NCBI GenBank assembly: GCA_964016885.1 | Contig: OZ024760.1 | Span: 31,868,001 to 31,932,000 of the forward strand | From: Eledone cirrhosa | Lineage: Eukaryota | DNA: 64,000 nucleotides | Direction of reading: 5' to 3' | Shown: positions 59,904 to 60,378 of the stretch, in pieces | Numbering within the stretch: the stretch's first letter is position 1 | How the letters are laid out: every line of letters begins with the position of its first letter | Notes under the pieces: generated by a model | The model's input: only the letters and a program-made list of their open reading frames with translations | What the model was told of the DNA's origin: nothing | Databases searched by the model: none | Position numbers and translations under genes: made by a program

Positions 59904-59968
59904 CTCAGTCATTTTGAATTCGTGTTTGGCGGAGGCCACTTCAGAAAATAATCTGTCCTAGCGAGTTT

Positions 59969-60047
59969 GTCCCCTGAAGAGTTCGAAACTCGAGATCTAT
60001 CCTTAATAAGATATCTCAAAATGAGAATGAAACCCATGGGTCGGGAT
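59969..60047 (+). ncRNA. Type I hammerhead ribozyme (HHR-4), GUC cleavage site, extended stem II
   Basis: GUCCC / CUGAAGA / GUUC...GAAU / GAAA / palindromic CCCAUGGG / UC / GGGAU. Confidence 0.8.
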
Positions 60048-60342
60048 TTAGGGATTTAATCCTGGTATGTATATAAGCATTTCTAACTTTAATTTTATAC
60101 CTAATTGTGTATGGTTGACCGTATATCTAATTAATTTCCACGTGCTGTTGAAATGTTGGGTTAATATTCTATAGCGGTTGGGCGCGAAGACGCTGCTATC
60201 GTTATTTACTGTTTCGTCATAGGTGCTTTTTAATCTCATAGCCTGGTCTAATTGATTTTTTGTGTGGTTAATTATGCTAATTGGGAGAAGAAATGATGTA
60301 TATATATTATCAAATGATTCTATGGACATGCTTTACTTTATA

Positions 60343-60378
<36 letters not shown>

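Follow-up and report, generated by a model that had tools for sequence, protein, structure and literature searches.

Does a short repeat between two (TA)n tracts in the genome of Eledone cirrhosa hold a hammerhead ribozyme that cuts its own RNA in the cell, and what would such a ribozyme do with an unusually long stem II? We analysed a stretch of 64,000 nucleotides (the window; contig OZ024760.1, positions 31,868,001 to 31,932,000 of the forward strand) of this 3.0 Gb genome, which is rich in microsatellites. A first-pass annotation, made from the letters only, had proposed a GUC hammerhead with a palindromic stem III and a stem II insertion of about 48 nt. Our reading, to which we give a probability of roughly two in three, is that the locus holds one copy, truncated and slightly decayed, of a tandem repeat that is non-coding and carries a type I hammerhead, that the repeat is likely a retrozyme mobilised by a Penelope-like element (PLE), and that the ribozyme would be braced by a pseudoknot and probably cuts after C17. 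The features are as follows, in window coordinates.

58682–59903: 5′ flanking (TA/TG)n microsatellite, into which the copy was likely inserted
59904–60343 (+): solitary copy of a non-coding, retrozyme-like repeat, unit positions 244–689 of a 689-nt unit; 5′-truncated, with the family's commonest 3′ end
59962–59968 (+): predicted 5′ strand of a pseudoknot, directly 5′ of stem I; seven Watson-Crick pairs with 59986–59992
59969–59973 (+): 5′ strand of stem I, pairing with 60043–60047
59974–59980 (+): core C3–A9, CUGAAGA here, CUGANGA in the family
59981–59984 (+): 5′ strand of stem II, GUUC (10.1–10.4), directly after A9
59986–59992 (+): predicted 3′ strand of the pseudoknot, in the internal loop of stem II, separated by one base from that stem's 5′ strand; G59992 could pair here or in the inner hairpin
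59992–60017 (+): inner hairpin capping stem II, GAGAU (59992–59996) with AUCUC (60013–60017); private changes at 59997 and 60009
60018–60024 (+): 3′ strand of the stem II internal loop, rich in A; all 31 alignment rows keep A60019 and A60020
60025–60028 (+): 3′ strand of stem II, GAAU; U60028 is C in 26 of 29 close paralogs
60029–60032 (+): core G12–A15.1, GAAA
60032–60041 (+): 10-nt palindrome, as a monomer stem III of 3 bp with a CAUG loop, as a dimer a 10-bp duplex
60033–60040 (+): self-complementary CCCAUGGG
60042–60043 (+): predicted scissile bond C17/G1.1; 5′-truncated paralogs pile up at the base equivalent to 60043
60043–60047 (+): 3′ strand of stem I
60065–60070 (+): 5′ splice-donor-like GTATGT
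60344–60381: (TA)n tract on the 3′ side; TA-rich sequence lies 3′ of the copies in 29 of 30 close loci (by eye)

Stem I, CUGAAGA, GUUC/GAAU, GAGAU/AUCUC, GAAA, CCCAUGGG and the predicted cut after C60042 were all located as first annotated, and the annotated interval (59904–60343, 440 nt) turned out to be exactly one repeat copy flanked by the two (TA)n tracts. CUGANGA, GAAA, UH, three helices and an open helix I make this a type I hammerhead, with the core intact in 22 of the 30 close copies. A strict descriptor matched twice in the window, versus no match in 4.94 Mb of shuffled sequence. Scanning the window with Rfam gave no match at the gathering threshold; the 45-position model RF00163, which does not hold the long stem II, aligns exactly to 59969–60047 with 16.1 bits (E 1.1, gathering threshold 34). 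Folding of single sequences gave no support in three ribozyme-length stretches (z 0.03 to 0.49), and the hammerhead fold of the window copy reaches −12.0 kcal/mol versus −20.4 kcal/mol for the minimum free energy (MFE) structure. The case for the motif therefore rests on comparison.

For this comparison, the genome was searched for core halves 40–56 nt apart together with CATGG, with the reversed pattern as control. The pattern matched 2,326 times (100 of the matches were listed) and the control 7 times; 156 records fell into 35 clusters at 90%, of which 34 were counted and one (L165) was left out as a chance match. Since the pattern required the core, CATG and a non-G H17, these are not independent evidence. 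N7 of the core is free (U in 18, A in 15 and C in 1 of the 34 clusters), while positions 1–4 of stem II are paired in 27, 32, 29 and 30 clusters, by G-C, A-U, U-A and C-G pairs, and positions 1–3 of stem I in 32, 34 and 33. The second pair of stem I (U-A in 21, C-G in 10, U.G in 3) is broken in none. As a monomer, stem III has 2 bp in 29 of the 34 clusters. Across a 31-row alignment, 85.2% of the cells are paired as against 80.9% after shuffling (0 of 500 shuffles as high); the number of pairs with a two-sided change did not exceed that of the shuffles (96 of 500). RNAalifold recovered stem II and the inner hairpin unaided and also paired the palindrome with the start of the core, which is an inactive alternative. 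Between A9 and G12 lie 46–54 nt in the family and 48 nt in the window copy. Stem I, stem II and the inner hairpin all covary between subfamilies. The long stem II, of the length annotated, therefore belongs to the family as a whole and is not an insertion private to this locus. The annotation had also staked its case on core and stems being conserved in genomic paralogs, and they are.

Two other pairings were rejected. A type III reading uses GAAA at 59985–59988, which sister subfamilies do not keep, and an outer stem extending stem I (59956–59961 with 60048–60053) is not conserved, resting on a 9-nt duplication specific to the window's subfamily. Three near-identical matches in viral contigs lack stem II pairing by eye and were treated as chance.

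What could the long stem II be for? A tertiary contact, as first suggested, now appears likely, and it can be named as a predicted Watson-Crick pseudoknot with the bases just 5′ of stem I; the other suggested role, a protein-binding site, gained no evidence in either direction. The 7-bp complementarity of 59962–59968 with 59986–59992 was reached in 56 of 5,000 shuffles. Common to all main subfamilies are 4 bp, and the pairs next to them are kept in 15 and 9 of 26 clusters; the first three pairs served as anchors in this count, and 10 of 36 clusters without the anchor were left out. The fourth pair is U-A in 16, C-G in 9 and U.G in 1 of the 26 anchored clusters (in the 31-row alignment U-A in 18, C-G in 9, U.G in 2 and other in 2), and is never C.A, either in these clusters or in 53 tree rows. 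The tree, of 53 downstream sequences, groups the C-G cases into a single clade, and the change from U-A to C-G therefore counts once; an independent-pairs test on this tree was not significant. Within the C-G clade the helix has 4–5 bp, not above chance (2,752 and 549 of 5,000 shuffles). The distant group D (39 pattern matches versus 0 for the control), which has no blastn homology to the repeat unit outside TA tracts, carries a different 9-bp helix at the same place. Here, 215 of 234 cells are paired in 26 of 30 loci, with anchors that are complementary by construction; 4 and 6 of 5,000 shuffles were as good, and wobble bias is seen at G-C columns (G.U 6 versus A.C 0) and not at A-U columns (3 versus 4). 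Where at least 4 bp between a strand 5′ of stem I and a strand 3′ of 10.x were looked for, we thus found 7 bp in the window copy, 4 shared bp in the main family and 9 bp in group D. Other hammerhead families of the genome have stem II regions of 19–36 nt, and the three tested contain no such helix. Judged on these comparisons, the helix 59962–59968/59986–59992 is very probably real, and the A-rich strand 60018–60024 could dock on it.

Group D itself (L167–L196) is an older family whose tandem unit is shorter, some 450 nt by eye. Its internal loop carries the pyrimidine strand of the pseudoknot again on the 3′ side, and this repetition could make room for a base triple or a change of register.

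If the RNA cuts itself in the cell, copying of the cleaved RNA should leave genomic 5′ ends at the base that follows C17. For the window's subfamily, we searched for (TA)n no more than 31 nt from an anchor placed 12 nt beyond the cut, which yielded 18 rows with 16 distinct contexts; the counts use a frequency profile, and the search pattern favours starts in G or C. Position 0 is where 6 of the 16 distinct TA-abutting ends begin (8 of the 18 rows), with none at −1, +1 or +2, two in −19 to −1 and one at +5. This excess has a p of 5.7e-6 if ends are uniform over 32 positions and of about 3e-4, by hand estimate, with 16 eligible positions. There is no TA microhomology at the junction, and a G-rich control window, whose anchor may match a different share of the copies, gave 3 matches, none beginning in the G run. 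Sister subfamilies have no significant peak: the strict script put 2 of 38 ends at position 0 (p 0.33), three more were found there by eye in a GGGAT variant, and the ends are drawn to the AT-rich positions +3 to +10 and thin out 5′ of the cut too (5 in −18 to −3). Pooling mutated references in a looser script blurred the peak to 2 ends at 0, 3 at −1 and 1 at −2, which is not significant. In a search for 3′ parts, none of 30 central pieces begins exactly at the cut and two begin at +3 and +6. Many copies read through the cut, L014 and L015 even twice, which calls for templates that are circular or uncleaved. From the pile-up at position 0, we consider it likely that the hammerhead RNA cleaves itself after C17 in the cell.

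Some partial copies (in L006, L014, L015, L258 and L263, the L258 piece being the same place as that of L006) begin at unit positions 361–363, within stem II on its 3′ side and some 20 nt upstream of the cut. Reverse transcriptase possibly stalled there at the structured domain.

The window copy stands alone at its locus, without a tandem neighbour. Compared with the majority base in 29 paralogs, it is changed at 59997, 60009 and 60028 and at the polymorphic position 60052; it is therefore likely weaker than the family type. The first 243 nt of the unit are missing too, and the pair 10.1–11.1 is a private G.U (26 of 29 close paralogs have C11.1), so that this insertion is likely passive or weakened. 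Two inverted fragments of a non-LTR retrotransposon, presumably RTE-like, flank the microsatellites around it (55855–58660, −, and 60690–62630, +); the former encodes RVT_1, a PHD-like finger and Exo_endo_phos_2. Further upstream, the window holds a 21-kb array (32401–53425) of 554 copies of a degenerate 39-nt unit with strong G/T strand skew, near which lie other minisatellites with units of 75, 77, 40 and 47 nt.

The window also contains other hammerhead motifs. One lies 500 nt away in an unrelated short element (60539–60598, −) and combines a 7-bp stem I, CUGAGGA and a 26-nt stem II with a 7-nt near-palindromic stem III and a UA site; it shows no significant pseudoknot. Two related AT-rich hammerheads (5224–5290 and 4631–4692, −) share a TATGTA palindrome and have stem II regions of 32 and 19 nt. 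Similar motifs occur at L102, L111, L113, L119, L123, L124, L197 and L230, and the AT-rich type is likely another large retrozyme family.

To which kind of element does the repeat belong? A first look gave 2,603 candidates, of which 40 were scored (91–100% identity). The unit measures 689 nt in the window's subfamily and 660–690 nt overall, has a longest ATG open reading frame of 35–43 aa and a GC content of 35%; retrozymes are non-coding with less than 45% GC. Tandem units that each carry a type I hammerhead, a retrozyme hallmark, are found in the family, in a sister subfamily array (L127–L128, G000:C1:92986000-93002000) with 23 ribozyme matches spaced 656–666 nt apart and one double gap, whereas the window copy is solo. 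Among 30 close loci, a second piece on the same strand was present in 10 and an inverted piece in 13, while 15 were solo; 5′ ends vary, and 3′ ends lie at unit positions 688–689 or 120–125. For PMC3088659, PMC3152364, PMC4209133, PMC6765202, PMC7229834, PMC8557442, PMC11300833 and bioRxiv 10.64898/2026.07.22.740005, what is said here and below covers the parts of the text that were available. The monomer is longer than the 150–450 nt of PMC7229834 and inside the 51–972 nt of bioRxiv 10.64898/2026.07.22.740005. Partial tandems, inverted 5′-truncated copies, (TA)n targets and fixed alternative 3′ ends match the Penelope-like insertion anatomy described in PMC8557442 and, in the parts available, PMC11167929. 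Taken together, these features suggest that the family is likely a non-LTR retrozyme, probably mobilised in trans by a PLE.

In the array L127–L128, we counted at least 23 units, with one inverted copy at the start and the 5′ strand of stem II broken in many. Upstream of the ribozyme, unit positions 180–260 (seen in L005; window 59904–59920 is their end) hold conserved CCAAT, CACGTCA and GCCATTTT motifs, most of which are absent from the window copy. They look like an internal Pol II promoter, as we assume, and 'YY1-like' is likewise an assumed label. A donor-like GT motif follows the palindrome within 40 nt in 71 of 78 loci, its position shifting between subfamilies. Introns can occur in PLE terminal repeats; one with its end at 60343 was rejected, because most other subfamilies lack the AG.

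We searched for an autonomous partner among three PLE-like families (30, 20 and 20 loci), two recognised by GIY-YIG or RT Pfam matches and the third assigned by eye, and found no 3′ sequence in common with the repeat unit; nor did a PLE reading frame run into the unit at any of 109 loci. Rejected as partners were a GIY-YIG PLE fragment beside L015, whose 3′ flank has no homology to the unit and holds, by eye, a different, minimal hammerhead, and two more PLE-like families without a common 3′ end. The neighbouring PLEs presumably belong to the clades Neptune and Hydra. One GIY-YIG family (L097–L126) is very young, with 34,352 candidates, many open frames of 784 aa and tandem copies about 3.9 kb apart; by eye, its 3′ end has a minimal hammerhead, with the core variant CCGAGGA in L125. 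The 3′ ends of two octopus Naiads (PMC8557442 supplement, as far as available) differ by eye from the window motif in order and sequence and were set aside.

Retrozymes, PLE hammerheads and pseudoknotted hammerheads are each already in print. With metazoan non-LTR retrozymes, the family shares tandem repeats that are non-coding, low in GC and carry a single type I hammerhead in each unit, a short helix III with a palindromic tetraloop and many solo copies (PMC7229834; bioRxiv 10.64898/2026.07.22.740005); a helix III of 2 bp plus tetraloop is the ordinary invertebrate form (PMC7229834), and these retrozymes have been proposed to be non-autonomous PLE derivatives (PMC7229834; bioRxiv 10.64898/2026.07.22.740005). 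It differs in having a stem II of 46–54 nt with an internal loop and a predicted pseudoknot, where theirs make canonical loop contacts, and the accessible parts of these two sources gave no cephalopod or long-stem-II case. Minimal PLE hammerheads have in common with it the type I form, the palindromic stem III region, the short stem I and PLE-type insertions (PMC4209133; PMC6765202). However, they lack helix III and tertiary contacts, whereas helix III has 2–3 bp here, and their helix II of 7–8 bp follows an extra base between 9 and 10.1, whereas here 4 bp follow directly after A9 and lead into an internal loop and hairpin. No PLE reading frame is attached here either. The first-pass label of a minimal hammerhead must therefore be given up: the monomer has a stem III of 3 bp with a CAUG loop, and minimal hammerheads are without helix III in the available text of PMC4209133.

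Also close are the pseudoknot-stabilised hammerheads of PMC3088659, in which a Watson-Crick helix likewise joins a strand 5′ of stem I to the strand leaving 10.x. About 40% of the representatives there have pseudoknots; these cases span the three hammerhead types and include the human C10orf118 ribozyme, and part of that analysis left out repetitive type I motifs. The pseudoknot of type II joins loop I to the tail that emerges from stem II; it speeds up cleavage 20- to more than 100-fold and forms before the rest folds (PMC3088659). The type II consensus has an open stem II and a closed loop I, whereas the present motif leaves stem I open and closes stem II with an internal loop and hairpin. 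A mirror-image hammerhead (PMC7936874) also has a short stem, an internal loop that pairs to the other arm and an extra hairpin of about 20 nt, but on helix I, pairing with loop II, in a type III ribozyme without a genomic repeat. The pseudoknot of the PK hammerhead (PDB 8YDC; PMC11300833) replaces helix II, which is kept and covaries here. The 'HHR_half_core' of Naiad elements (PMC8557442) also has core halves 35–50 nt apart, a spacing that escapes standard descriptors, and (TA)n targets. We found no report of this combination, nor of genomic 5′ ends at the cut, in the literature as available; PMC4209133, PMC3088659, PMC7229834 and the 2026 preprint may show similar motifs in their figures and supplements.

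How might the element work? Tandem units would be transcribed, and the strand 5′ of stem I would pair with the strand leaving stem II, presented as an internal loop by the long capped stem, so that stems I and II would be held parallel. The RNA would then cleave as a monomer, or as a dimer through the palindrome; the 10-bp duplex comes to −17.8 kcal/mol, and dimer cleavage is possible in the model since tandem arrays exist, although the window locus is single-copy. A PLE reverse transcriptase-endonuclease would nick (TA)n DNA, and copying would begin inside the RNA, at either of two fixed positions that lie 3′ of the cut by about 300 and 425 nt; for an Anolis element, both initiation at an internal site and AT-rich cleavage have been shown (PMC11167929). 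A cleaved linear RNA would give run-off at the cut, and a circular or uncleaved RNA would give read-through and copies of more than unit length. Tentatively, and at somewhat less than even odds, we go further and propose an undescribed architecture of a hammerhead, carried by an animal retroelement: the 48-nt stem II would close the open arm of the prokaryotic type II design, the pseudoknot with the 5′ leader would be activating, and cleavage in vivo would be efficient and recorded in the genome, since on cleaved RNA the reverse transcriptase of the PLE would have run off at the scissile bond.

The same element and ribozyme could also be read the other way round, with 59962–59968/59986–59992 as an attenuator: formed first, during transcription, it would trap the core in a loop and delay cleavage until the RNA is refolded by a dimer or protein. 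The helix appears in the MFE structure of four of five folded copies (the fifth, L003, is mismatched in it), as a plain hairpin looping out the core, and in the window copy stems I and II have probabilities of 0.10 and 0.02; the folds come from ViennaRNA, however, which cannot model pseudoknots. Peripheral interaction does lower cleavage of the BYDV satellite hammerhead (PMC3152364), a protein is needed by the Anolis PLE hammerhead (PMC11167929), and the read-through copies fit slow cutting. Yet the two strands lie right next to stems I and II, with the same register as in the activating pseudoknot of type II, which also forms alone (PMC3088659), and 5′ ends do pile up at the cut. An attenuator is therefore improbable, and an activating role for the pseudoknot quite probable.

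More doubtful still is that the complementarity is incidental, the long stem II being an inert or protein-binding hairpin and cleavage proceeding by palindrome dimers alone, as in ordinary PLE hammerheads. The single compensatory event in the main family, the lack of such a helix in the three tested hammerheads with a 19–36-nt stem II and the retention of CAUG (which the search pattern required) would all fit; a different 9-bp helix at the same place in group D and a fourth pair that is never C.A would not. That little cleavage occurs in vivo, and that reverse transcriptase stalling at the three-way junction or the dimer stem III produced the pile-up, is very improbable. PLE hammerheads are slow in vitro (PMC4209133), PAc gave no reads ending at the cut (PMC11167929), eight of nine Xenopus retrozyme dimers were uncleaved (bioRxiv 10.64898/2026.07.22.740005) and the sister subfamilies lack a peak, but stalling would put ends at −1 (stem III) and near +5 (stem I), where the window's subfamily has none and one, versus 6 at 0, and core and stems are conserved while N7 is free. 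We retain the likely retrozyme with a hammerhead that is predicted to be pseudoknot-braced and likely cuts after C17.

The function of hammerheads in Penelope-like elements has been called unclear (PMC8557442, available in part), and for one PLE hammerhead cleavage was dispensable in vitro, with no reads ending at the cut (PMC11167929). Since the present family is large, with many subfamilies, a covariation series and a countable footprint at the cut, this question can be put to the test from an assembly alone. Descriptor and Rfam searches miss hammerheads with a stem II of 46–54 nt, so retrozymes of this kind are likely undercounted. The motif sits in an ordinary class of element, its architecture is unusual and the genomic evidence of its cleavage in vivo is suggestive. 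If the activating pseudoknot is correct, these copies would be sequence-level evidence that ribozyme-cleaved RNA is a real template of transposition, and would suggest that long-spaced 'half cores' that descriptors miss can be whole ribozymes.
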